The notes: generated from the sequence alone by a model not told the origin. Shown: positions 609 through 15,948, numbered from the stretch's first letter. The stretch is 15,948 nucleotides of DNA from Candidatus Vampirococcus lugosii (GCF_018420025.1 NZ_JAEDAM010000027.1:1-15948); one strand, 5' to 3'. Translations and numbers: made by a program.

Positions 609-658
609 TACTTTTCCCGCCCGGGCGAGAAAAGTAAAAATAAAAGTTTTATTTTTTT
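609..658 (+). terminator. GC-cored stem-loop followed at a distance by a T-run; possible transcript end or stabiliser for the upstream gene, but not a textbook intrinsic terminator
   Basis: TACTTTTC (609-616) pairs with GAAAAGTA (629-636), enclosing the perfect palindrome CGCCCGGGCG (618-627). A T-run GTTTTATTTTTTT lies at 646-658. The immediate flanks are T-rich on the left and A-rich on the right, the reverse of a canonical terminator. The stem lies 167 nt after the stop at 442. Confidence 0.4.
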
Positions 659-684
659 GACATACTATAAATTATATTTATACT
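657..684 (+). promoter_or_regulatory. sigma70-like promoter candidate for the 735..10507 block
   Basis: TTGACA at 657-662, a 16-nt spacer, then TATACT at 679-684, about 50 nt upstream of the ATG at 735. The exact -35 hexamer is uncommon in this G/C-poor DNA, whereas -10-like hexamers are frequent by chance. Confidence 0.4.
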
Positions 685-734: not shown

Positions 735-1733
735 ATGTGAATTGATACTTTAAGTGTTTGAACAAATGATGATTTAGATAATATACAAGATATTATACAA
801 TGAATGGATGAAAATAATGAGAATAAAACTCAAGTTAGAGAAAAATTTGAAAAATTAAAAGCAGAACTTGAACAAGATTGAATAAGTTTGGAAGATAAAG
901 AAAAAGCTTATGAAGAATTTAAAGAAGCTTTGGATAGTATTGAAGATGAAAAAATAAAAGAAATATTAAATATTATTAATTGAATTCAATCTGAATTAGA
1001 TAATTTGCAAACTAAAATTGATCAAAATGATTGACAAGTAGGAAATTTAGAATCTGAAAAAGAAAATACACGAAGGCTTGTAAATGAAAGTTTTATAGAA
1101 AATTGAACTTTTGAAAAAATAGAAGATATTGATTTTATGGATGATCCAGGTAAATTTTTTGAAAATGTTATGAATAGATTTGTTAATTCACTTATTTCTT
1201 CTATTGATTCTATGGCAAGTTTTTCTTTTTTTGATAAAAATTTTGAAATATTCTCAAATGATGTAAAGATGGATAAAATATCAAAGTTTTTTGAAAAAAA
1301 AGATTATATAAATAAATCTGATATAGATAATTTTTCAAATATTTTGAATTCATTGAGTGAATATACTTTTTTTTGAGATTGAAATTTATTACAAAATTTG
1401 GATAATTTGGATTTAAATAGTTTGGATTGAATTGATGATAATCAAGTAAATAGAGAATTGTTTTCTAAATTATTAATTTTTATAAAAGAAAATTTGGAAT
1501 ATATAAATAAACAATACCCAGAAAATGAAAAAAAATCTGCTAAATTTGATGATATTATTAAATTTTTATTTAATAATCCTGTTGCAAATCAATTTAGAGA
1601 TTATGCAGTTCCAAGTATTTGAATAAAAATTCCTAGTAAAACTAAAATTGAACCAGAAATAAAAACAAAAAAAGAATGAAAAATAAAAGATGAAAATATA
1701 GATGATTGAGATGATTCAAGTGCTGATGATTAA
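735..1733 (+). CDS. hypothetical acidic coiled-coil protein, 332 aa, no hydrophobic segment (predicted cytoplasmic)
   Basis: ATG 735 is the first start after the in-frame TAA at 726; TAA stop at 1731-1733. The frame is open throughout with TGA as sense (checked line by line). The N-terminal third is E/K/L-rich and heptad-like (EKFEKLKAELEQDGISLEDKEKAYEEFKEALDSIEDEKIKEILN). The C-terminus is acidic (DENIDDGDDSSADD). Track fragment 1137..1376 lies inside it in the same frame. Confidence 0.85.
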
Positions 1734-1799
1734 AAATATTTATTTTACATAAATTAATTTAAGAAAATATATTTTATAAAATTTAAATAAATACAAATT

Positions 1800-3431
1800 A
1801 TGAATGAATCTTGAAATTGAACAGAAAATGAAACTCTTTTGAAACAAAAATTAGAAGAATTGAAAATTGAAGAAAAAAAAATTTTGGAAGAAATTCGTTC
1901 TTTAAAAAAAGAAAAAGATGATTTATGATGAGATCCTGTTTTGAAAGATTTTTATGATAAAAAAATTGAAAATAATATTTCTCGTTATAATAAATTAAAT
2001 ATTGTTTTTGAAAAAATTCAAAATCAATTAACAAATAATATAGATGATTTAATTAGAAATACTCAAAATGATTTGATAAATTCTCTTACAGCTTGACCTA
2101 TCAAGTTTGTTAAAAATAAAAATAAAAATACTTGATCTTTAAAAGATGAGAATTGAAATGATATTAAAAGTTTTTTATGAGAAGACATAAATTGAAAAAA
2201 TGTGGAACTTATTACTCATAATTGACAAAATTATTCTATTGTTAAAGGAAAATCTTGAAATGAATTTAGATTAGTAAATCTTGATAAATGATGTTTTATT
2301 AGTAATTGGTATGATAGTATTAGTTTTGATCATACTACATGATTGTTTATTGTTGATAATTGAACTGGAAATTCAAATAGTCTTATAACTTCAACATATT
2401 GAGTTTGAAAAAAATATATGACTATTGATTGAAAAATATTATGAGATGTAGATTCTTCCAAGATAGGATGTGATGAGTGATGAGTTTTTTATGAAGATAA
2501 ATTTAAATATTCATTGTCTAATAATAGATTTGAATCCAATGATGATTATGAAATAATAAACCCTGAATCTCAAAAGCAATGATTTTTGTTTGTGAGATCA
2601 AGTGTTTTATCATCTCAAGATAATAAAATATATGTTTTAAAATTAAAATCTTGAACTACATTTGGATGAGATAAAATATGAAATGAATTTGATGAAATAT
2701 TGTCTGATATAAAAGATTTTGGTGGAGAAAAATATGTAAAAGTTAGAGATTGAGAAAATATATCTTGGTTAAATCTTAATACTTCAGAGATGATTTGAAT
2801 AGATTTAATTGAAGTTGAACAAGTAAAGCAAATTGGTGATGATTGGATTTTTAAAGCAAAACAAGGAAATGATAAATATGTATTGATAAATTTGAAAACT
2901 TGAAAAATTATAAATTTTTTGGAAAAATGAGAATGAGATGAAATTTGAGATATAGAAGAAATTTGATGAATGAAATATATAAAAGTTAGAAATTGAGAAA
3001 AATATTTTTATATAAATTTTGATACTAAAGAAATTATATGATCTGGATTTGATGAAATATGAAAAATTATTCAAGTTAAAATAAAAAATGAAGATAAACT
3101 TATTTTTAGGTGAGAAAATTGAAATTTAGCTAATTATTATGATGCAAATACTTGAAAATCTTTGATACAAGATAAATTTTGTTGACTTATATCTTCTTGA
3201 GAATGATTAAAATCTTTATCATGAAAAATAGATAAATTAAATAATAAAGATATTATATATTTTCAAAATTGAAGAAAATATTTTGATCTTGAAACATGAG
3301 AAGTAAAAAAATCTCCAAAACAAGAAAAAGTTGAACAAGAAGTAGCAGAAAAATCTAAATCAGAATGATGGCTGAATAAGTGATGGAAAAATTTTAAGAA
3401 AAAACGAAATGAAACAAATATATTATGATAA
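1800..3431 (+). CDS. hypothetical protein, 543 aa: N-terminal coiled coil plus C-terminal array of WG/KWG-like beta-hairpin repeats; no signal peptide
   Basis: ATG 1800 is the first start after the in-frame TAA at 1788; TAA stop at 3429-3431. I hand-counted 47 in-frame TGA, 9 GGN and 5 TGG codons. The N-terminus reads LLKQKLEELKIEEKKILEEIRSLKKEKDD. The C-terminal half repeats units such as KYVKVRDGENISWLNL, NDKYVLINLKTGKII, KYIKVRNGEKYFYINFDTKEII, NYYDANTGKSLI and GRKYFDLETGEV. These resemble the WG-containing beta-repeat class, a motif-level impression only. Confidence 0.85.
2721..3310 (+). repeat. protein-level tandem beta-hairpin repeats inside the 1800..3431 CDS, with one still-visible nucleotide duplication
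   Basis: 2730..2759 (aaatatgtaaaagttagagattgagaaaat, KYVKVRDGEN) is repeated at 2973..3002 (aaatatataaaagttagaaattgagaaaaa, KYIKVRNGEK). 'x-T-G-K/E-x-I/V' turn motifs recur across the span. Confidence 0.6.
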
Positions 3432-3462
3432 TTTTATATATTATATAAATATTAAAAATAAA

Positions 3463-5262
3463 ATGAGTATAGATAATCCTAATAATCTAGATAGAAATAA
3501 TTCAGTGGATAAACTTAATGATAATCCTGAAATTTTAGATATTTCTCTTGAATCTTTGGATACAGAGATTTTGGTTTGAAGATTGACAAATATTATGCAA
3601 TGATGAGAATATTGAGAAAAAGAAATTCAAACATATTCAAGTATTATTTGAAATAAAATTTTAAATAATCCTTCTGAATATTTAATTTTACAAAAAGAAT
3701 TTAAATCTAATAACTTACCAAAAGAATTTTTGGATAGTTTATTGTTGGAACATATTTTTGATTTTGATACAAAACAGGCAATAGTAGATATTATATCAAA
3801 AAATTGAAGTATAGAATATGGTGATATACAAGCAATTTTTGATTATTCTAGTTTGGAAGAAGATTTTGAACAAAAAAAACAAGAAATTGAAGAATTTAAA
3901 AATAAAATTCAAAATCAAATTAAAATTGGATGAGAAGAAAAAATAAATTTTGATCAAGATATATCAAGTTTATCAAGAGATATGGCAAATAAAGGTATTG
4001 ATCAAAATGCTATTACAAAATATATTGATTTGTATCAATCATTTAATTCTATTAAAAATAGAATGGGAGATGTAGAAAATAGTTTATTATTTAATATACA
4101 GGATAAAAATCCTAATTTTAATTTAAGAAATGTTGATGCTAGTTTGATAAATATTTTTGGAAATAGGCTAGGAGTGATAGAATATTTTCATGAAGTACAA
4201 GATACAAATTCTATACTTTGTGATATAGTAAATGCTAAACCATGAAACCTTTCTGAATGGAATCAAGTTTGGCAAAAAAGATGAATTCATTGATTATTAA
4301 CTGAAGCTATTTCAATGACATGACTTAATAGAAAAGATGCTCAAGGTATAGCAAGTATTGGTATGGTGGTAGGTGGTGCATATATTGCTTGGAAAATGAT
4401 TAAATGATTTTTTTGAGCAAAATGAATTGATTGAAAATTAATTTGGATGCTTAAAACTTGATGAATTGTATGATGATATTTTGTTGCAAAAAATATTGCA
4501 AGTGGTAAATCTCAAGAAGAGTTACAAAATAATAGAAGGGCTATTTTGGATTGACTTAGAAATGATACTGTAGCTAGAGAATCTATAAAACTTACTATGC
4601 AAAATATTTATTGAGATGATAAATTAAAGGAAGTATTAACTATTTCTGATGAATGAAATTTGGAATTAAAATGAATTTGGGATTGAAATACTTTATCTGA
4701 AAAATATAGAGAAAATAAATCAATAATTGCTATAATTAAAGCTGAATGATGAGAAATTGATGAAAACTGAAATATAAATGGTGATATTGAAAAAATTAAA
4801 AAAGAAGTAAATGATTTTTTAATTACTTGATTTACTATGTTATGAGTTTCATCTACTAATTTAAATGAAAAAAAAGATCAAAAAGTAAATGATATAATAA
4901 AAGAATTTGAAAAAGATAGAGATATAGAAGTTAGAAAATTTGCAATTAGAGATCGTATTGCAGATGATTTAATTTATAGATTAAAATCATTAAAATGAGA
5001 TACTTCACAAGCTCAAGATTTAATAGCAAGATTTAGAATTTTTGCTATATCAGAAAATGATTTTATTAATTTATGGTGAAAATTACATTCAAATATTACT
5101 AATAAAATATGATCTCAATGGATTGCAACTTTGATGGCATGATATTGAATGGAAAGTGTTCAAATGATGGAAGTAGTAGAAACTAAATCTAATTTAGCAT
5201 CTTGAGAAAATAATGAAAATAATGAAAATAATGAAGTTGATGAAGATAATGAAGTTTTATAA
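3463..5262 (+). CDS. hypothetical membrane protein, 599 aa: soluble N-terminal ~290 aa, two-helix Gly-rich transmembrane hairpin, soluble C-terminal domain with an acidic ENN-repeat tail
   Basis: ATG 3463 follows an A-rich leader like those of the other genes; TAA stop at 5260-5262. The frame was verified line by line. Hairpin: GIASIGMVVGGAYIAWKMIKGFFGAKGIDGKLIWMLKTGGIVGGYFVAKNI (nt 4345..4500). The C-terminal tail ENNENNENNEVDEDNEVL includes (gaaaataat)x3 at 5206..5232. An alternative in-frame ATG at 3409 would add 18 Y/I/N/K-rich residues and overlap the upstream gene. Track fragment 3982..4245 is internal. Confidence 0.85.
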
Positions 5263-5335
5263 ATTTAAATTATTTTATTAATTTAAGTTTTGTAGATAAA
5301 TTATTTTTTATTGTATTAAAAATAATTAATAAAAA

Positions 5336-8300
5336 ATGTCAAATATTGAAATTAATACTGATTCATTAGAAAATAATAATGAATCATTAGAAATTGAACA
5401 AGAACAAGATGTTTCTGAAATACTTAATGATTTTGAACTTGATGTAAGAAGGGAACTTATAGAATGAGAAACTAAATGAAATCTTGAAAGATTATGACAA
5501 GAGATAGATTCAAGATCTACTTTTGATCTTGCTTTGGAATTAATAAATGATGATAAAGAAAAAATATTAAATGAGCAAGATTCTGTTAAACTTGAATCTT
5601 TTAATATGTTTGTATGATGGAATATTATGGGTTCTATTTTTAAAAAAATTATGCAAGATAATATTGATCCATACAATGAAATCGTAGATATTGAGGAATT
5701 TAGTAAACAAATAAATTTATTAAATATTTCAAATACTCAAGATTTACAAAATTATATAAATAAAAATAATATTTCATTGACAAATAGAGAAATTCAAGTT
5801 CTTGATTTTTTGGTTCAAGATAATACAGTTTTTTCACAAGAATATAATGAAAAAAATTTTTGAAAAATATGGGATGGAATGAAAAGTGTTATGCCTGATT
5901 TTGCTTTAAAATACAATGAATGAGTTAGATCTTGATGGGATGACCTTTCTGAGCAAGAATTAAATTTTTTGGATAATATTTCTGAAAAATGATGAGATAT
6001 ATTTTCTGAAATGAAAGATGTTTGAGTTGAGTGAGTTTTTGAAAAAGATAATTGGCAAAATAAAACTTTGTCTACATGATTAGTTGCATGATGATTATTG
6101 GCTGGTGGTGCTTTAGCATTGAAATGACTTTCTAAACTTTTTGGAAATAAAAAATGATGATGAGATTGAAAAAAACTTTGATTTTTGGGTATGTTGAAAT
6201 GGTGATGAATTTTATGAGTGGGGGGCTATTTACTATATAATTGGTTCAATAAAGATTGAAAATTAAATTCTTCTGAAAATTATTGATCTTGATTTGAAAG
6301 AAATGTTAAAAGTTTTGAGCAACTTAATGAAAGTGATAGAAAAAAATATAATAAATTTTCTTTATGAGTAGATTTTTATTATAAATCTGCATATTGAGAT
6401 GATTTTTCTGATTGAATGAAAAATAATGATATGCTTTGAGAATATGAATGGGAAAATGAAAAAAATTGACTTGATTATTCATGAGTTTATCCTTATGCAC
6501 TAGACAAAAGATATAAAAATATTGATCAAATTTTGTCAGAATGAAGTTTTTTTCTAGAAACATTTAATGTTTCCAAAGAAATTTTTAAACAAAATTTATT
6601 GGGTTGGTGAGTTAATAAATTAAAAAAATATTTTGAACCATTTGCATGAATTCTTTCAAAAATAGATGGTTTTACAACAGATATATTTTTACTTCCAGAT
6701 ACTGAATTTGAAAAAAAATTTAAAAATTTTTTAGATAAAGAAGATTTTGTTGATCAAATAAGAGAAATATTTAGAAAAAATATTAAAATAATTTCCTATC
6801 TTAATAGTAGGATAGATTATTTAAAATATGAAATAATAAAACAAAACTTGTTGGAAAATGATCCAGATTTTGAAAATAAAAGTGAAACGGAAAAAGAATT
6901 TTTGATTATGGAAAAAATTGATGATGAAAAATTTATGGAAAATAAAGTAAAACCTGCTTTAGATTTATTCTTGAATTCAAAAATATTAAATGCAAATGAA
7001 ATATTGAATAATTATTGAATTTTGGATTCTTGAATAAATGAAAATTTACAAGAAAGATTGCAAGAAGTTGATGATTGGTATGAAGAAATATTGTTTGAAT
7101 GAGAAAAATGAAATTATCAAATAGATGATATTTTATCAAATTTTGAATCTTGGGATAATTTAGATGATTTAGATAAACAATATTTAAATGAATTGTCAGA
7201 AAATTTATGAGAAGATATAGATAATTTTGGAGAAAGAGAATTTTTGGAAGCATTATTTTGACCTTATTATTATTCTTTTAATTCTGAAAATATAAATTTA
7301 AGAGAATTATTACAAACTATATGATATGATGAATTTGTTTGACCTTGGAAAAAAGTTCTTGAAACTTTTTGAGAATGAAAAAATCCTACTAAAAAAGATA
7401 TTGAAAATCTTAAGCAAGTAGTAGATGATTTTTATATTTTTCAAAAGGAGATTATTATATGAGTAGATAATTTAGTAGAGATTAGAGAAGATTGAAATTT
7501 GGTAGTAAAAGCTTGATTTATTATTAAACAATTTGGTAGAGAAATTTCAAGTTTTATAGATCTTTCTTTCAAATGAGAATTTAAAGATTGATTTTTTCAA
7601 TTAAGTGCTTGAACATTACTTACTTCTATTTGGATTGCAAATAGAACACCACTTGTTAAAATTGCTTCAAAACCTATAAGTGGATTTATTTTTTCTCCAA
7701 TTAATTTAATAAAAAATCCTATTTTGAGAAAAATTCCAGCATGATTTGCTCATTATTGATTATATCCAAAAAATGATTTTGGAAAAGCAAGACTTTTATA
7801 TGATTTTGCTAGATGAAGATTGAGTTTGGAAAAATCTACTGATATTTGGAATAATATAAGATGAATAACTTGATGAAAATTGACAAAAGCTACATTTTTG
7901 CAACAAGCTTTTTGAGATTGATTAACACCACAACAATATAATTCTATTGCTAATATTTGGGAAAATAAATATCTTAGAAAACAAATTCTATCAGATAAAC
8001 CTTCAATTTTAAGAGATTTTGTTTCATTACAAAAAATACCTGATGATATAAAAATTAATATTTCAGAAAAATTGTCAAGATCTATAAATTCTATACAAGA
8101 TTTATCTTGAAATAAAAAAATGTTTTTAAATAAATTTATTAAATATTATAATGGTGATTTAGATTCTTTAAATAATATATTAAGAAATATAAATACTATT
8201 TGATTTGATAATTTAGATAATAATCAAATAAATAAATTTGCAAAATCTATTGCTAGATCTTCCAAATGATTGAGTAGTACTCAAATTAATGAAATTATTA

Positions 8301-10507
8301 ATAGTATAATTAATGAAATTAATAATTGAAATAAAATAAATTTTAATTCTTATATTAGAACTTATAGATCATCTTTTTTAAATTCTCCAACACTTATAAA
8401 ATCTGTATCTCCAGAATTATCAAGTTCTAAATTATCTAGAGTTAAATCTCCATTAGTTGGAACTTTAACTCCAGAAGAATTAAAAGATCTTGAACTTAAA
8501 GTAGAAAAAATTAAATCTTGAAATATTGAATTTAAACAAAAATTAATACAGGCAAAAAATAATCCAAGTTTATCATTAGATGAAAAAAGATTATTACAAA
8601 ATCAAATTGATTCTATAGATGATTTAATAAATAATACAACCGTTCAATCATTAAGAGAAATAAAACAAAATCCTTCAATTTTGAGAACAGTGGATTGAGT
8701 ATATGATTGACTGCATGAAAGCACAAAAGTTTTTTCTAGAACAGTTTCCAAAATGAAAGATATTATAAAATCAAGACCTCGTATTACAGCATGATGAGTT
8801 TTGACAGTATTAGATGTTGTTTTGATAACTTATTTTCATAATGTATGAATGGATTCTGCTAAAGAAATGGAGGCTATAAATCCTGATTTATCAATTGAAC
8901 TTGAAAAAACACAAAATTTATCAACTACAGTTTCTGCTTTAACATCTGCATGAGCATTATGAGCAGCAGTTTTTATTCCTTGAGTATGATGGGCTATAGG
9001 TGCAACTACTTTAATATCAATAGCATGATGGGGTTTACATGAGATTAGTATATGACAATATAGTAATACTGTAGATTTTTATAACAGAAATTTTGAAAAT
9101 TATATAGGTATGTCTAGTGCTAAAATTAAGCAATCAATAATATCAGCAGTTTCATGAATAGAATGAATAAATCCTAGTTTATGATTTAATGTTGCTGATA
9201 TGATAAAAGATGAAAAATATTTTGAAGAAAAATGAGAAGCAACTCTAAATGATGCCATAAAAGCTCTGATACATCAAGAAGAAATTTATAATTATACAGA
9301 TGCTTTTATTTGATTTGATTGGAATCTTGATAATCCAAATGAAGAAAAAATAAGGCTTTGGGATAAAGAACCAAGACATGCAAGAAAACTTACACAAGAA
9401 GAAAGAGAATATGTTAGACAAAGAAGAGAAGAATTTTATTCTATAGTAAATAAAAGATTTGAATATATAAAAAATAATAATTTATTGGCAGATTTATCTA
9501 AAAATATTGAATATAATAATTGAATATGATATATAGAAGAAATATTAACAATGTCTAGATATGTATCTAATGAAAATGAAGATGAAGTAAAAATTAATGA
9601 ATTGAAAGAAAATTGAAATTATGAAGTTTTAAATAAAATATTTATCAATAATGATAAGTTAAATGTTGAATTACTTTGTGAAACATATATTAAAGTAATA
9701 AAATGATATAATTTATGATTATTTTCTGACTATGAAGAGAATTTGGAATATTTTATTGAATATTATAATTATAAATCCAAAAATATTCATCCTTGAATAT
9801 TAAATTCAATAATTTCTAGGTATGAATCTAATATAAATGTTGATAATATTGATTTTGGAAGATTATCAAACTTTTTGGAAAATTTAAATTTTGATAAAAT
9901 ATCTAATTGGGATGAAATTCCAGAAGAAGAAATATCTTTATCAGAAAAATATTGAATATCTAATAAAGTATGACAAAATGTTTTATATTTTATAGCAAGA
10001 GATGTTTATTCATATATATGAGAAAACGATTTAGATAGTCTTAAATTATTTTTTTCTAGTGATAATAGAAAAAATTATTGAATATATTGGTCTTGAAATG
10101 CTTGGTTAGTTTATCAAAGTGGTTTTAGATTTAATAATTTAGTTCTTCAATATCCTTACGAAGATAATAATCAAGATCCTTATAGTTATGCATTTAATGA
10201 AGCTGAGTCTATAAATCCAGATTATTGAGAATGATTTTTGGAAAAATTATATGAAGCTTTTGATAATACTAATTTTATAAATCCTGATCATAATTCGGGT
10301 AGAGATAATATAAATGAAGAAAAAAAAGATAAAATATTAACTATTATAAATGAAGAAAGAGATCTAATTAATTGAAAAGATGATATTGAACAAGAGATAA
10401 ATAATTTTGTTAAAAGTAATTCTTGATCATGAAAAATACAAATACCTAGTGATTTAATTATTAAATGACTTAGAGTAGGTATTGATATTAATTCTTGGTA
10501 TTGATAA
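5336..10507 (+). CDS. giant hypothetical polytopic membrane protein, 1723 aa
   Basis: ATG 5336 follows the in-frame TAA at 5330; TAA stop at 10505-10507. Every line from 5341 to 10441 was checked and has no in-frame TAA or TAG. Hydrophobic clusters: (1) nt ~6071..6247, STGLVAGGLLAGGALALKGLSKLFGNKKGGGDGKKLGFLGMLKWGGILGVGGYLLYNWF. (2) nt ~7590..7720, FFQLSAGTLLTSIWIANRTPLVKIASKPISGFIFSPINLI. (3) nt ~8780..9045, ITAGGVLTVLDVVLITYFHNV ... TTVSALTSAGALGAAVFIPGVGWAIGATTLISIAGWGLHEI. Long N/K/E/D/I-rich soluble stretches lie between them. Track fragment 5627..5863 is internal. Confidence 0.88.
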
Positions 10508-10558
10508 ATAATTTTTTTATAAATTTAATAATTTTTTATTATTTTTGTTAATTATTAC

Positions 10559-10586
10559 TTGAAATTTAAAAAAAGAATATTACAAT
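10559..10586 (+). promoter_or_regulatory. sigma70-like internal promoter candidate for the 10654..15198 exoprotein block
   Basis: TTGAAA at 10559-10564, a 16-nt spacer, then TACAAT at 10581-10586. It sits in the longest internal intergenic gap (146 nt), about 68 nt upstream of the ATG at 10654. Confidence 0.35.
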
Positions 10587-10627
10587 ATAACTATGCTAGT
10601 TATATGCAATATAATTAGTATTATATT
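10585..10627. promoter_or_regulatory. two adjacent short palindromes just downstream of the -10 candidate; operator-like
   Basis: IR1 is ATATAACTA-tgc-TAGTTATAT (10585..10605; 9-bp arms, 3-nt spacer). IR2 is AATATAAT-tagt-ATTATATT (10608..10627; 8-bp arms, 4-nt spacer). AT-only palindromes can arise by chance in this composition. Confidence 0.3.
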
Positions 10628-10653
10628 TATTTATTAATGTGACTAATATTATT

Positions 10654-11949
10654 ATGTCTAATATCAAATATTTGATAATACCTTTATTTTTTTTGATACC
10701 TATTGTTACATATTGAACACAAGATATGAGAGAAGAGTGCTATAATGATCTTACTAATTATATGTCAAAAGTAGAGCAATTTAAACCTGCATATGAAATG
10801 ATTCAAGATTTATGATATGATAAATTATCAGAGTCTTTTTCAAAAAAGTATGAAAATATGTCGTCTTTTGGTGTAGATTTGAATAAACCTATTTTATCTA
10901 TGAGATTACATTCTTTTGGTGAACAAACATCTTATCAGCATCCACCATATTCTCCATTTCCGATTTATGAGTGAACTGAAAAATGGGAAAATCCTGTTAA
11001 AGAGTTTATAATTGCTGAAGAATTTGTTACTAATCCTGAAGATTGACAAGAATATTTTATTGGTTGTTCTTTTATGAATATTCAATCTCCTGATTTAATG
11101 AGTGTTGATGCAGATAATTATTGGTATGATTGAGAAATATTATCTGTATTGGTAGAAGATAAGTCCAAAAATAATAAAGTTTGGCATAATACAAATAGAT
11201 CTTTTAATTATGAAAATGAAATATTAGCAGATTTTGATAGATTGTTTGTTTTTCCAAAATTAACTCAAAATGATTTTTTTAGTAAATATGATATAATTGA
11301 TGCATTCCCTACTAACAAAATAGATTTGAAGAAATATTTGAATGTAATAAATCCATCTGGTGATGAAGAATTACTTTTTACAGTAGTTTATGATCAAAAT
11401 TGAAATGTTATTTGATGAAGTTCTTTAGATGTTTTTAAAGGTATTTTTGATGAATCAAATAATGAAGGTTTTCCGCTTTTTGATATGTATCAAGAAATAG
11501 AAAATTTGTATCCAGAGTTTGCAAAATATTTAGCAATAAATTGATTTGTTAGTTTTGATGTTTTTAAAGAGTTAATGAATTTAAAATGAGATCATAGTTA
11601 TGCAGATTTATGGAGTTTTATATCAAGAAGTAAAGATTTAATAAAATATGCAAATCAAATTCGTAAATGAGAAGAGCCTGACATATCTAATGATACAATA
11701 TTGGTAGAATTTTATGATGAAATGTTGAAAAATATTGACTCTTTTGATAAAGATGCAAGAGAAAGAATATGATTAGAGCCATTAGAAATTAGTAATAGTG
11801 AATTAAATGAGAAAAACATAAAAAACATAAAAAATACAGAAAATGATGATTGAGATTGATTTAATTATTATATTATAATTGCAATCTTAGGATTTGTCTT
11901 TTTTATAATATTTTTGTTTATAATATTGGGTTCCAAAAATAAAAAATAA
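10654..11949 (+). CDS. hypothetical exported protein, 431 aa, with an N-terminal signal sequence and a C-terminal transmembrane anchor (type I topology)
   Basis: ATG 10654 (a GTG at 10639 is a possible alternative); TAA stop at 11947-11949. The frame was verified line by line. N-terminus: MSNIKYLIIPLFFLIPIVTYGTQD. C-terminus: GFNYYIIIAILGFVFFIIFLFIILGSKNKK, a hydrophobic helix followed by a basic stop-transfer tail. There is a small tandem (aaaaacata)x2 at 11812..11835 (KNIKNIKN). Track fragment 11149..11403 is internal. Confidence 0.85.
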
Positions 11950-11974
11950 ATTTATATATTAAAATAATAAAAAA

Positions 11975-13024
11975 ATGAAATTTAATAAAATACTTTTACT
12001 TTTATGTCTTATTTTAGTTGGTGTTTGATTTTCTTATGCAAAAATGCTTGATATAAATCAAGAAGAAGCTGAAAAACATGATTTATATAAAAATAAAAAA
12101 CTTACTGATTATCATATAGATCGGTGTAAATCATGAAATTCAAGTCTTTTAGGTAGTACATCTTGAAGTACATTTGTAACACTTGTATCATGTGTAGCAC
12201 AATGACATATTTCAGGTGCAACATTTAAATGACCTTATGAAATTGATTGAGTAGATCGTTCTGGTGAAAGGCGATGTAATTCTACAGATCCTAATTATAT
12301 TTGAAAGTGTGGGCATTGAGTTTCTCAAAATTTACCAGAAACTTATTCTGCTGAGGTGTTGTATAATATTCCATGAAATAAAATAGCAATTAAATGATTT
12401 AAAAATACTTGATCTCCTAATGTAGGTGGTACTTATAATACTCCGTTTTTGTATCTTGAAAATCAACCTGAGTGAAAAATAGATATTACTATTAACTCAA
12501 AAAGAGATAATTATTCATCACAAAGACCAGATTTTAATATAGAAAATTGATGGTCTGTATTAAATGATAATTGAAATATGTTTGTGGAATTAAAAAAAGT
12601 TGATTATTTATTCTATTTGTTAGATTTTGAAAGAATAGAACTTACTAGAAATGGTAAAAATTTTGATAGTAAAGATGAGTTAACTAATTATTTAATCAAT
12701 TCAGATTTTTTTCAAAAATTATGATTTGATGAAGAACAAAAAGAAAATTCTTTAGATTATATTTTGCCTACAATACAAGATTCTCCAAACTATTATCTTA
12801 CAGTACTGACAAAAGAATCTATACAAAATATTGTAAATTATGAATTTAGTGAAGAACCTGAAAAATTAATAAGAAGATATTTTGCTATATATCCTACATT
12901 AAATCCAGTAAAAACAAGTTGATGATTACAGTTTCCAGAAATTATAGAATATGATAATGAATATATTATCAAGGATTTTGGTGAAATATATCTAAAAAAT
13001 GGTATGTTACCTATTTGGAAATAA
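11975..13024 (+). CDS. hypothetical secreted protein, 349 aa, signal peptide plus 4 mature cysteines
   Basis: ATG 11975 follows the in-frame TAA at 11960; TAA stop at 13022-13024. I hand-counted 17 in-frame TGA, 10 GGN and 2 TGG codons. Signal peptide: MKFNKILLLLCLILVGVGFSYA|KM. Mature Cys occur in DRCKSG, VSCVAQ, RRCNST and GKCGHG. The frame was verified line by line. Confidence 0.85.
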
Positions 13025-13053
13025 AAATTTAATTATATAAATAAAATAAAAAA

Positions 13054-15198
13054 ATGAAATTTAATAAAATACTTATGTGTAATATTGTTTTTGTAACAAG
13101 TTTAGGTATTAGTTTTGCAAGTTGACCTGATGAAGAAATTGAAGAGTCTGTAACATTGCAATGAGTAAAATTTGATGTATTGCATCATAAATATGAAGAA
13201 AGTGAGTTAACTCATCAAATGAAATGTGATGAATATTGAGAAGATTATGATTTTTTGAAGCTTACTGTTAATGGAACTTCAAGTATGATAAGTTGTGATA
13301 TAGATTGATCAAAATTGGTTCCACCAGATTGATTAGATCCAGATCCAGATCCAGATCCAACAGGTCCAGATCCAGAACCAGATCCAACAGGTCCAGATCC
13401 AGATCCAACAGGTCCAATTAGTATAACACAAACTACACAAACAGAATATGATTGTGCTACTTATACTAAATGATATCATGAAAAATGGTGAAATTGTAAA
13501 GTTAAATGAGATTGGACAGAAGATTGAAAAATTAAATGTGTACAAGAATCAGATTATGAATGACTTACAGCACCTTGTGGTCAAATGGAAGTTACAATAA
13601 CTAAATATTTTGATTGAAATTGAGATTTAATTGGTACTGATAGAAATGAAGGGGATTGTACATGATGTCCATGAGATAAGAAAAAACCTAAGTCAAAAGA
13701 AAATGATGTTATAATAAAATTAGTTCATGATAAATTTGAATGTATTTGATCTAGTTTTGCAAATAATTCTGATAAATGTTGATCAAAATTTAAGATTGAT
13801 CTTTCATGATTAAAAGATCCATGACTTGTAGATATAGAATGACTTGCATGAATAGGTATTACTAATATTAAAAATGAAACAAAAGAGCCTGCAGATATTA
13901 AATCTGCATATGATCCAGATGATAATAGTGCACTTAATTTTAGTGATGTTATTGATACTCAAATACGAGGTAGTTCTACCAATTTTGGGTTTAGAATATC
14001 AGATATTAAAGCTATATCACCATTTAAAACAACTAATTGAAAAATATCTTTTGATATTGAGAATGTTGATGTACCTTGAAAAACTAATGTAACATTAGAT
14101 AATATAAATTATTCTTTTAATAAACCATTTACTGGTAGTTTGTCAATAGATCCAAATTGAATTAGAGTTTGACAAGCTCAAGAATTAACTTTACATTATG
14201 CAACATGAACAGATATTTTAGATTTTGGAGATGATGAAGAAATAGAATATTTTGGTAATACATTAAAAGTTAATTGAACTTGATATGCATTAGTTACTAC
14301 TTGATTTGATTCAAGAGATACTGATCTTGAAATGGTTGTTAATTATGACTGATGAAATATAGATTGAGATCCACGATTAACTACAGATCCTTATATATTT
14401 TATACTGTAGATTGAAAAGATGTTAGATATCGTTTATCTGATGGTAATGAACCAAATGATCGTAGAGTTACTTATATACCTACAAATACAAGTTATTTGA
14501 ATATAAAAATTATATGACAATCTCAAACAGTATGAAGACAAGATGTAACTGGTCAAGCACAGAATTTTTCTTCTATGTCTACTTCTAATTTTAGAAATTC
14601 TTTTAGAAGAAAAGTTTTGGAATATACTAGATGATGGGAATATGATGATAATAAAGATTGAGTTTTATATCTTGATTGAGAAGGTGATACAATAGAATAT
14701 TCTAGTATATCTGATACTTTTGAGACACTTATTATTCGTAATTGAAATCTTCTTATAGATGAAGATATTAATCATATGAAATGAATTGTTGTTATTAGAG
14801 ATGATGTGAGAGAAGATACTTTATGAAATATATTTGTTAATCAAGATGTTCAAGAAATTAATGCATATATTTATTGAGATTGATGATTAATTAGTTTTGA
14901 TAAGGATGAAAATGATTCATATAATAATTATTCTGATTCTTTTAAAAGACGTGAGAATTTAGAAAATCAATTAGTTTTGGAATGAAGGTTGTATACTAGG
15001 AATACAGTATGATGAGCAATTTGAGCTTGAAAATATATGTTGCCAGGTGCTAAAGAAACTACAGATTATCATAGAGCTTTGATGTATGATTTAAATCAAT
15101 TTAGATCTTGAAGATGATCTAGTCCAGTAGATTCTAATTATACTGAGGCATTTATTATAAAATATCATACTTGACAATCTCCAAAATTATTTGAATAA
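13054..15198 (+). CDS. hypothetical secreted, adhesin-like protein, 714 aa: signal peptide, DP/TGP-repeat linker, Cys-rich module, then a long beta-rich region
   Basis: ATG 13054 follows the in-frame TAA at 13042; TAA stop at 15196-15198. The frame was verified line by line. Signal peptide: MKFNKILMCNIVFVTSLGISFA|SG. Linker: DPDPDPDPTGPDPEPDPTGPDPDPTGP. Eight Cys lie between nt ~13450 and 13790 (EYDC, GNCK, IKCV, APCG, GDCTGCPG, FECI, DKCG). The remainder is rich in T/S/N/D/G/Y alternation. C-terminal motif: NQLVLEGRLYTRNTVGGAIGAGKYMLPG...YDLNQFR. Confidence 0.88.
13336..13416 (+). repeat. in-frame imperfect tandem repeat encoding a Asp-Pro / Thr-Gly-Pro linker
   Basis: The unit gatccagatccaacaggtcca (DPDPTGP) occurs at 13348..13368 and 13396..13416. 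A 27-nt variant with an extra gaacca lies at 13369..13395, and extra gatcca copies lie at 13336..13347. The antisense translation of this repeat is the WIWIW track ORF 13333..13545. Confidence 0.9.
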
Positions 15199-15257
15199 AT
15201 CGTTTTTTTTAGATTAGAAATAATTAATTATAATTATAATAGAAATTGTCTGTTACT

Positions 15258-15307
15258 AAAATCAAGAAATTTAAGTAATTATATTTTACTTAATTTCTTG
15301 ATTTTTT
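15258..15307 (+). terminator. rho-independent terminator of the cluster
   Basis: ATCAAGAAATTTAAGTAA (15261-15278) pairs with TTACTTAATTTCTTGAT (15286-15302), giving 17 bp with one bulged T and a 7-nt loop TTATATT. A T5 run follows at 15303-15307. It lies 60 nt after the stop at 15198. A-residues at 15258-15260 could make it bidirectional. Confidence 0.6.
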
Positions 15308-15338
15308 CATAAATTTATATTTGTAGAATAAAATTTCT

Positions 15339-15363
15339 AAATCCTTGATTTATACAAGGATTT
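15339..15363. other. second short stem-loop downstream of the terminator
   Basis: AAATCCTTG (15339-15347) and CAAGGATTT (15355-15363) are perfect 9-bp arms with a 7-nt loop. No adjacent T-run is present, so the function is unclear. Confidence 0.3.
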
Positions 15364-15948
15364 GTGAGAGAATAAAAATAGATTTATGTACTACATAATA
15401 TTTTATAATCTTATTTTGAATAATTTATTTTCTATATTTTTTTGATTTTATATATATTATTATCATTAATTTGTTTTATTCAATCAATTTGTTTCAATAA
15501 ATTTTTGATAGTATTTTAAATATTCTATTTATAGATATCAATATAATTTCATTTATATATTTTTTTGTATCTTTATCTATAAAAAATTTAACAAGATAAT
15601 TAGTAAACATAAGTTTTTTAACTATATTTGCGAGTACTTTTTTTTAATAAACATATTATGATTCTTAGCACTTAAAATAATAAAAGATAAAAAATATATT
15701 ATTTCAAGAGAAAATACAATAATAATCGCCACTACAAAATAAAATATTTTTTGTTTACAAAGATGAGATAATAGATAATATTATGTTTTGAAGAGTTAAT
15801 ATTTAGAAGTTTATAAATATTCTAAATTATTAATTAATATTTTATTTGATTTGTCAATATATAAATACATAAAAATATAAATATATGATAACTATACTTA
15901 ATCATAAAAAAACATAAAATCGTTGAATTTTTACTTAAAATAAGTATA

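Follow-up and report, generated by a model that had tools for sequence, protein, structure and literature searches.

We analysed seven consecutive genes (g1–g7) on a 15,948-bp contig of Candidatus Vampirococcus lugosii (Absconditabacteria, SR1; NZ_JAEDAM010000027.1), the whole of which, including part of an upstream gene (g0), is referred to here as the window. Our tentative reading is that these genes form a non-enzymatic envelope module composed of two adjoining lineage-restricted sets, a membrane-associated operon (g1–g4) and a group of exported coat proteins (g5–g7). What is new in this analysis is that g1–g4 correspond to a conserved operon of very narrow range, that explanations by phage, plasmid, defence or known secretion systems fail and that g3 and g4, previously taken for paralogs, are not demonstrable as such. 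The sequence itself was already public: all seven proteins are deposited as hypothetical (MBS8121968-75, exact look-ups), and g4 is listed in a published table of the ten largest proteins of this organism. The genes, with lengths in amino acids (aa), are as follows.

735..1733, plus strand: g1, 332 aa, acidic (net charge -34), no Cys, MBS8121968
1800..3431, plus strand: g2, 543 aa, helical hairpin, all-beta repeats and basic Trp-containing tail, MBS8121973
3463..5262, plus strand: g3, 599 aa, mostly helical, Gly-rich hairpin, alpha/beta domain and acidic tail, MBS8121974
5336..10507, plus strand: g4, 1723 aa, VAMP_54_69, MBS8121975
10654..11949, plus strand: g5, 431 aa, predicted type I membrane protein with signal peptide and C-terminal anchor, MBS8121969
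11975..13024, plus strand: g6, 349 aa, predicted exported protein with signal peptide MKFNKILLLLCLILVGVGFSYA, 5 Cys, MBS8121970
13054..15198, plus strand: g7, 714 aa, predicted exported protein with signal peptide, 11 Cys, product P0001

The evidence for the g1–g4 operon comes from one divergent relative. When g3 was run in a full HMMER scan against 1.84 billion representative proteins, a single true homologue emerged (P0010; 605 aa, 42–43% identity, E 3e-104), whose tryptophan-for-glycine substitutions show that the gene was called with code 4 in an organism that uses code 25. Its source is a 4.3-kb metagenome contig with 27% G+C (L003; ENA ERZ27265998, contig k141_433407); we found no paper mentioning ERZ27265998. 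This contig carries, in the same order and orientation as the window, the C-terminus of the g1 ortholog, g2, g3 and the N-terminus of the g4 ortholog, with gaps of 34–64 nt, and stops 161 codons into the last of these. The proteins are 53% identical in the C-terminal 38 aa of g1, 31% over the full length of g2, 42–43% in g3 and 36% across residues 44–127 of g4. Because the gene order is retained at 31–53% identity, the comparison provides good evidence that g1–g4 constitute a conserved operon and a functional unit.

Alignments of g3 and g2 found no relative in 185,579 GTDB species genomes, and neither did the g3 alignment or a hand-made, TGA-aware DNA pattern of its juxtamembrane block in the JGI metagenomes, although both scans rely on exact short patterns and absence from them is not proof. 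Since the HMMER, GTDB and JGI scans together yield one relative, the g3 family is very narrowly distributed (two known members in 1.84 billion representatives) and the g1–g4 operon narrow in range, rather than a general Absconditabacteria or Gracilibacteria apparatus. The synteny test proposed in the first-pass annotation of this sequence thus gave a divided answer: the g1–g4 order is kept in one divergent code-25 relative, and no wider conservation was detected in GTDB, JGI or IMG/VR. Word-indexed searches of 5.8 billion protein clusters with g7 and g4 retrieved each query itself and nothing else, and two Logan contigs with near-identical proteins (L001 and L002) proved to be V. lugosii's own sequencing runs, not relatives. 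We rejected another candidate, P0011 (E 3e-9 against g3), as a homologue; it is made up of near-identical Listeria-Bacteroides-type repeats, each weakly matching g3 residues 383–462, with pairwise E 3e-6 or worse, not significant per unit and without Pfam backing.

The reading frames themselves depend on a reassigned stop codon. The window has a G+C content of 22.7% and contains no open reading frame (ORF) of at least 150 aa under translation table 11; table 25, in which TGA is a sense codon, gives seven long plus-strand ORFs at the positions first reported. TAA and TAG would make up ~8.4% of random codons at the base composition of the window and, given this expected stop density, the open frames of g1–g7 are not chance products (P ~3e-13 for a frame of at least 332 codons; P < 1e-12 for frames of 332–1723 codons; our own calculation). 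TGA accounts for 63–87% of codons at glycine positions in g1–g7, and TGG is present as well. In TGA-masked alignments of two of the proteins with their orthologs, TGA stands opposite itself or GGN glycine codons (14 times) and tryptophan is never among its listed partners. Because of this pairing, the alignments identify the genetic code as 25 and not code 4. The same pairing, together with the exact protein look-ups, bears out the table and the lineage assigned in the first-pass annotation. The G+C content at third codon positions (GC3) is uniform across g1–g7 (0.06–0.13), which indicates that these are resident genes and not recent imports.

Measured from ATG starts, the gaps between the seven genes are 66, 31, 73, 146, 25 and 29 nt, in agreement with the same-strand cluster with 25–146-nt spacing described initially. 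The coordinates of g1–g4 also stood, whereas the starts given for g5, g6 and g7 (10615, 11963 and 13045) are ORF boundaries and the corresponding ATG codons lie at 10654, 11975 and 13054. The deposited g3 comprises 617 aa from an ATG at 3409 and overlaps g2 by 23 nt. Because the N-terminus of the ortholog aligns to the ATG at 3463, which is preceded by the A-rich context seen at other starts, the annotation probably places the start 18 codons too far upstream, and we favour 3463 over 3409.

The products of g1 and g2 are predicted to be cytoplasmic. The g1 protein contains a coiled-coil-like N-terminal region (about residues 10–120) and a conserved C-terminal motif, LFNNPV.N..DYA.PS.G.KIP. The g2 protein, for which neither a signal peptide nor a transmembrane segment is predicted, is composed of an N-terminal helical hairpin (residues 6–95) followed by an all-beta repeat region (~130–505) with a period of ~40 aa. 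Two units of this repeat correspond to an internal duplication at the DNA level (2706–2798 and 2949–3041), 72% identical over 93 nt and 243 nt apart. The AlphaFold2 model of g2, computed from a single sequence, has a mean predicted local distance difference test score (pLDDT) of 51, with values of 78–89 in the hairpin and 40–65 in the beta part. With this low-confidence model, Foldseek returned local beta-propeller matches (E ~2e-5, probability up to 0.99) at TM-scores of 0.13–0.19 and rmsd > 16 Å. The repeats are all-beta like those of BamB, PQQ/WD40-like or WG-type beta-hairpin repeat proteins, but they match no Pfam repeat family at E <=1; the fold search is consistent with beta-meander repeats at most and does not demonstrate a closed propeller. 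The basic, moderately amphipathic C-terminal tail of g2 (GW.K..KK) is kept in the ortholog and, judged by its composition, could be compatible with peripheral membrane (lipid) binding, which is not proof of it.

The part of g3 best conserved with its ortholog is a Gly-rich hydrophobic hairpin (residues 295–345) and the juxtamembrane block that follows it (SQEELQNNRR.IL.GLR). Transmembrane helices were defined as hydrophobic helices of ~19 aa or longer scoring > 1.6 on the Kyte-Doolittle scale; the two hydrophobic segments of g3 score 1.43 and 0.99, under this usual threshold, so that membrane insertion of g3 is plausible from its composition but not secure. The AlphaFold2 model of g3, built from two sequences, is mostly helical (mean pLDDT 51) and includes a small, moderately confident alpha/beta domain after the hairpin (~370–480). 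Foldseek comparison of the model with the PDB and BFVD returned nothing meaningful, with no BFVD match at E < 0.1. The structure prediction and fold search proposed in the first-pass annotation were thus carried out for g2 and g3 and, with pLDDT values near 51 for both, gave only the local propeller-type matches of g2. The alpha/beta domain contains a conserved DxDxDG-like loop at residues 431–442 (window ~4753–4788; EIDENGNINGDI), corresponding to residues 438–449 of the L003 ortholog (DIDDDGMISGSD). This loop resembles calcium-binding loops, and calcium binding is putative; if it does occur, it would hint that the domain lies outside the cell, in conflict with a simple hairpin topology.

The much larger g4 protein begins with an acidic N-terminal region, followed by a Gly-rich hairpin (residues 244–299) and ~850 aa of helical or Ser-rich sequence. 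Its C-terminal half includes further hydrophobic segments (1150–1168 and 1199–1239) and a 484-aa C-terminal domain. The hydrophobic segments score 1.58, 1.63 and 1.71 against the threshold of 1.6, and the hairpin loops are basic. The similarity between g3 and g4 detected by BLASTP is limited to the 60-aa Gly-rich hydrophobic hairpin (E 3e-4 in an 8-sequence database), and hhalign comparison of the g3 profile with g4 gave a probability of ~1%; the earlier description of the 599- and 1723-aa proteins as paralogous is therefore not upheld. The gap between the two genes (5263–5335) contains two A/U-only hairpins that fold better than shuffled sequences (-15.5 kcal/mol, z -3.2); these could represent a processing or attenuation site, or mere composition.

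Export signals in g5–g7 were identified by inspection and a Kyte-Doolittle scan. The N-termini of all three proteins are classical Sec leaders with a basic n-region, a hydrophobic core and small residues at the -3/-1 cleavage site, which confirms the earlier assignment of g5 as a type I anchored protein and of g6 and g7 as signal-peptide proteins. The g5 leader (MSNIKYLIIPLFFLIPIVTYG|TQ) precedes an ectodomain of ~380 aa, a C-terminal anchor at residues 407–425 (Kyte-Doolittle 3.53) and an SKNKK tail. Cleavage of g6 is predicted at GFSYA|K and of g7 at GISFA|S. The g7 protein has a Cys-rich region, the 11 Cys being its whole-protein count, and a (D/E)P-rich linker (residues ~93–120; DPDPDPDPTGPDPEPDPTGPDPDPTGP) that arises from a tandem 27-nt repeat at 13323–13416 (D2/D3); its C-terminal part is the putative adhesin-like portion of the first-pass annotation. 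The Cys counts of g6 and g7 (5 and 11) compare with 0–3 in g1–g5, and g0 is also rich (8).

Several further observations concern these exported proteins. The UniRef name of g5, "YARHG domain-containing protein", was discarded, there being no Pfam YARHG match even at E <=10. When the window was compared with L002 (SRR13241709, an independent amplification), all 6 differences fell in g5, within 10740–11928; 3 are synonymous and 3 conservative, and 4 of the 6 are located within 46 nt of the C-terminal anchor. The differences may stem from amplification error or, in a surface protein, from microdiversity or a recombination tract. In L001, 4259 nt across g1–g3 are 100% identical to the window. The g6 and g7 genes share a 41-nt stretch, 93% identical (11955–11995 and 13034–13074), that runs through the leader region and codons one to seven (MKFNKIL), and their proteins are dissimilar outside it; the match suggests duplication or conversion of the 5' end or export signal.

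Transcription signals were examined across the window, and three features are relevant to the relationship between the two gene sets.

657..684, plus strand: promoter-like site, TTGACA-16-TATACT, ~50 nt upstream of g1, 11/12 match
10559..10586, plus strand: promoter-like site, TTGAAA-16-TACAAT, in the 146-nt g4–g5 gap, 10/12 match, chance-level class
15258..15305, plus strand: terminator-like hairpin, 20 bp, with A-tract/U-tract flanks, after g7

The upstream site reported at 657..684 exists and ties for the best promoter-like score in the window, but sites of this class are not above chance (159 found against 160.8 expected from shuffles). The site at 10559..10586 is a possible internal start for g5–g7. 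The hairpin downstream of g7 folds at -17.6 kcal/mol (z = -5.83), with none of 200 shuffles folding as well, and is the only strong intrinsic-terminator-like hairpin on the plus strand of the window; followed by its U-run, it substantiates the clean terminator noted at first. No strong terminator was found after g4 and before g5, where the best fold reaches -4.7 kcal/mol (z -1.2). Because the only strong terminator follows g7, the two sets are probably co-transcribed.

Searches of Pfam, PHROGs, NCBIfam and PADLOC with all eight proteins (g0–g7) returned nothing above cut-offs, and the same was true of Pfam for two of the L003 orthologs. In PHROGs, g4, g5 and g6 had no match at E <=0.1 and the other proteins showed weak matches of unknown function only. 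The Pfam, NCBIfam and PADLOC hits of g1 were coiled-coil-type noise (in PADLOC, PbeC/JetC segments at E 2e-5 to 2e-3), and no other protein matched in PADLOC. None of the six proteins and two profiles used as queries matched a PDB sequence; g6 matched neither families nor the PDB, and g7 neither the PDB nor the phage and viral collections. There was likewise no match by tblastn to 50,697 phage records and 72,556 plasmid records, or in the IMG/VR scans. Thus, the homology check suggested at the outset (Pfam/HMMER and PDB sequences) assigned no known function to any component, and no relative of g5, g6 or g7 came to light in the searches made here, of which the full HMMER scan covered g3.

A motif scan of the eight proteins identified no Walker A motif ([AG]xxxxGK[ST]), HExxH or lipobox, confirming the reported lack of a Walker A or recognised catalytic motif. 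The 15.9-kb contig carries no transposase, integrase, phage hallmark (terminase, capsid, portal) or tRNA, and the empty family, phage, plasmid and viral searches uphold the earlier statement on mobile elements. Among the eight contig proteins, motif, Pfam and NCBIfam searches revealed no VirB4/VirD4, EssC/EccC or PilB/PilT-type P-loop ATPase. Nor was there a Pfam or NCBIfam match to WXG100, prepilin or VirB6/VirB8-like families, and the leaders of g5–g7 are not of the class III type (G/FTLIE). Taken together, these results argue against a phage or plasmid origin of the block and against its being a defence or known secretion system.

V. lugosii, an epibiotic predator of Halochromatium, has a single membrane and is surrounded by a thick fibrous coat that occupies the gaps separating Vampirococcus cells from one another and from their prey (PMC8080830). 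Feeding takes place through a fibrous contact zone of ~100 nm, and no bridges were observed (PMC8080830). The g4 product is the "hypothetical protein, 1723 aa" of Supplementary Table 1 in that study, which lists the ten largest proteins; its authors inferred that these proteins are located in the membrane and give rise to the fibrous surface (Moreira et al, 2021, PMC8080830). Apart from this entry, the text of PMC8080830 does not discuss the cluster or the g1–g4 core. Most members of this giant-protein set carry WD40, PKD, DUF11, integrin or alpha-2-macroglobulin domains, whereas g4, itself a member, and its six neighbours have none. Because 48.9% of V. lugosii genes lack COG or domain annotation (PMC8080830), the lack of recognisable enzymes is no signal in itself; assuming independence, ~8 runs of seven unknown genes are expected by chance (0.489^7 x ~1150 genes).

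Based on these data, we propose that the most likely site of assembly of the g1–g4 products would be the cytoplasmic side of the single membrane. There, g1 would act as an acidic coiled-coil protein and g2 as a coiled-coil and beta-repeat protein whose basic tail could bind lipid. The large, helical g3 and g4 proteins would be embedded in the membrane or tethered to it through their short Gly-rich hydrophobic hairpins, and the extra hydrophobic segments of g4 may place its 484-aa C-terminal domain outside. Of the three Sec-exported proteins, g5 would be anchored by its C-terminal helix and g6 and g7 released, and all would most likely add to the thick fibrous coat between cells and between predator and prey.

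Two known systems offer partial analogies. The attachment organelle of Mycoplasma pneumoniae (HMW1-3, P1, P30, P65) couples a cytoplasmic coiled-coil scaffold to membrane adhesins. The resemblance would lie in non-enzymatic, lineage-specific components in a reduced-genome, host-contacting bacterium, but sequence similarity is absent, the Pfam scan detected neither an EAGR nor an acidic-proline-rich domain, and Vampirococcus shows no sign of a polar structure. Chlamydial Inc proteins combine a bilobed hydrophobic hairpin with coiled-coil domains and are type III secretion substrates inserted in the host membrane. Both g3 and g4 appear comparable in having a hydrophobic helix pair of ~50 aa with a short loop and large helical soluble flanks; however, no type III secretion system or homology was found, and the g3 and g4 hairpins are Gly-rich and marginally hydrophobic.

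Several points weigh against an envelope module of two adjoining sets. The full HMMER scan used g3 as its sole query, and the conservation of g1–g4 was observed on a single short contig that ends inside g4 and offers no view of g5–g7. The topology of the hairpin proteins is ambiguous, given the sub-threshold segments of g3 and the basic hairpin loops. No specific function is backed by homology or by a confident structure, the g2 and g3 models having pLDDT values of ~51. Finally, the promoter-like site in the g4–g5 gap and the slightly different composition of g5–g7 raise the possibility that the two sets may be unrelated neighbours. This last possibility is part of the closest competing explanation, to which we assign a distinctly lower probability: g1–g4 would be a cytoskeletal or membrane-shaping module, serving the flattened stacked cell shape or division and not prey interaction, and g5–g7 unrelated variable surface proteins. 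The coiled-coil regions of g1 and g2, the membrane-tail-like C-terminus of g2 and the hairpin anchors of g3 and g4 would suit such a role; conservation is seen for g1–g4 only, a promoter-like site precedes g5, and the differences between the two independent amplifications fall in g5 alone. Against this, the proteins resemble no known cytoskeletal, division or ESCRT/PspA-type family, and no strong terminator follows g4.

The first-pass annotation had instead proposed a layered apparatus running from cytoplasm to membrane to surface. Its non-metabolic, envelope-directed character is supported here, whereas nothing but adjacency and the absence of a strong terminator in between connects g5–g7 with g1–g4. 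In its full form, all seven genes would encode one dedicated trans-envelope apparatus for host contact or feeding in Vampirococcus-type predators, with g1–g2 as scaffold, g3–g4 as membrane core and g5–g7 as external parts. We consider this unlikely. The predicted localisation is indeed layered, a single strong terminator follows g7 with none after g4, the g1–g4 core is conserved and the organism feeds via the ~100-nm fibrous contact zone described above, with no bridges observed (PMC8080830); yet the proteins include neither an energy source (no Walker A) nor a channel-like polytopic protein, no tie of g5–g7 to g1–g4 is demonstrated, no family member turned up in other Absconditabacteria within the reach of the searches, and runs of unknown genes are expected at the 48.9% base rate. 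Slightly less probable again is a more specific version, in which g1–g7 would form a previously unseen ATPase-less trans-envelope contact structure whose scaffold is coupled via hairpin-anchored giants to Cys-rich exported proteins. A phage or mobile-element remnant or cargo, with g4 as a tape-measure-like protein and g5–g7 as tail or receptor-binding proteins, is very improbable. Like many tape-measure proteins, g4 is a very long helical protein containing hydrophobic, Gly-rich segments, and tape-measure proteins were among the BFVD matches of the g3 model, none significant. A phage or other mobile origin is nevertheless disfavoured because of the null searches (PHROGs for g4–g6, tblastn against phages and plasmids, IMG/VR), the Sec signal peptides on g5–g7, which are absent from virion proteins, and the uniform codon usage across the block; the contig also has no integrase, terminase or capsid gene and no tRNA.

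Upstream of the block lies a gene that is truncated by the contig start.

2-442, plus strand: g0, partial upstream gene, C-terminal 146 aa, MBS8121967

The g0 fragment consists of a Gly/Ser-rich linker and a domain with 8 Cys. Its codon usage is unlike that of g1–g7 (GC3 0.20 versus 0.06–0.13; TGA at 29% of glycine codons versus 63–87%), which may reflect a difference in expression level or in origin. The 750 bp downstream of g7 (15199–15948) are a non-coding contig end with 14% G+C and one 44-codon ORF on the minus strand, and a tRNA and Rfam scan of this region gave no match. It contains a second hairpin (15334–15369, z -3.5) and direct repeats (15420–15457 and 15543–15580), and is probably the reason why the assembly broke there.

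Vampirococcus is one of the few Candidate Phyla Radiation (CPR)/Patescibacteria epibionts whose interaction with the host has been imaged. With about half of its genome unannotated, the block is only one of many candidates of its kind for a part in that interaction. If the ATPase-less contact structure were real, Vampirococcus would use it to attach to Halochromatium, or to feed on it, across the ~100-nm fibrous zone. On our preferred reading of a two-set envelope module, the evolutionarily coherent unit is g1–g4, and its four conserved membrane-associated orphans, together with the three exported orphans encoded next to them, would make a reasonable candidate short list for the fibrous coat and contact zone.

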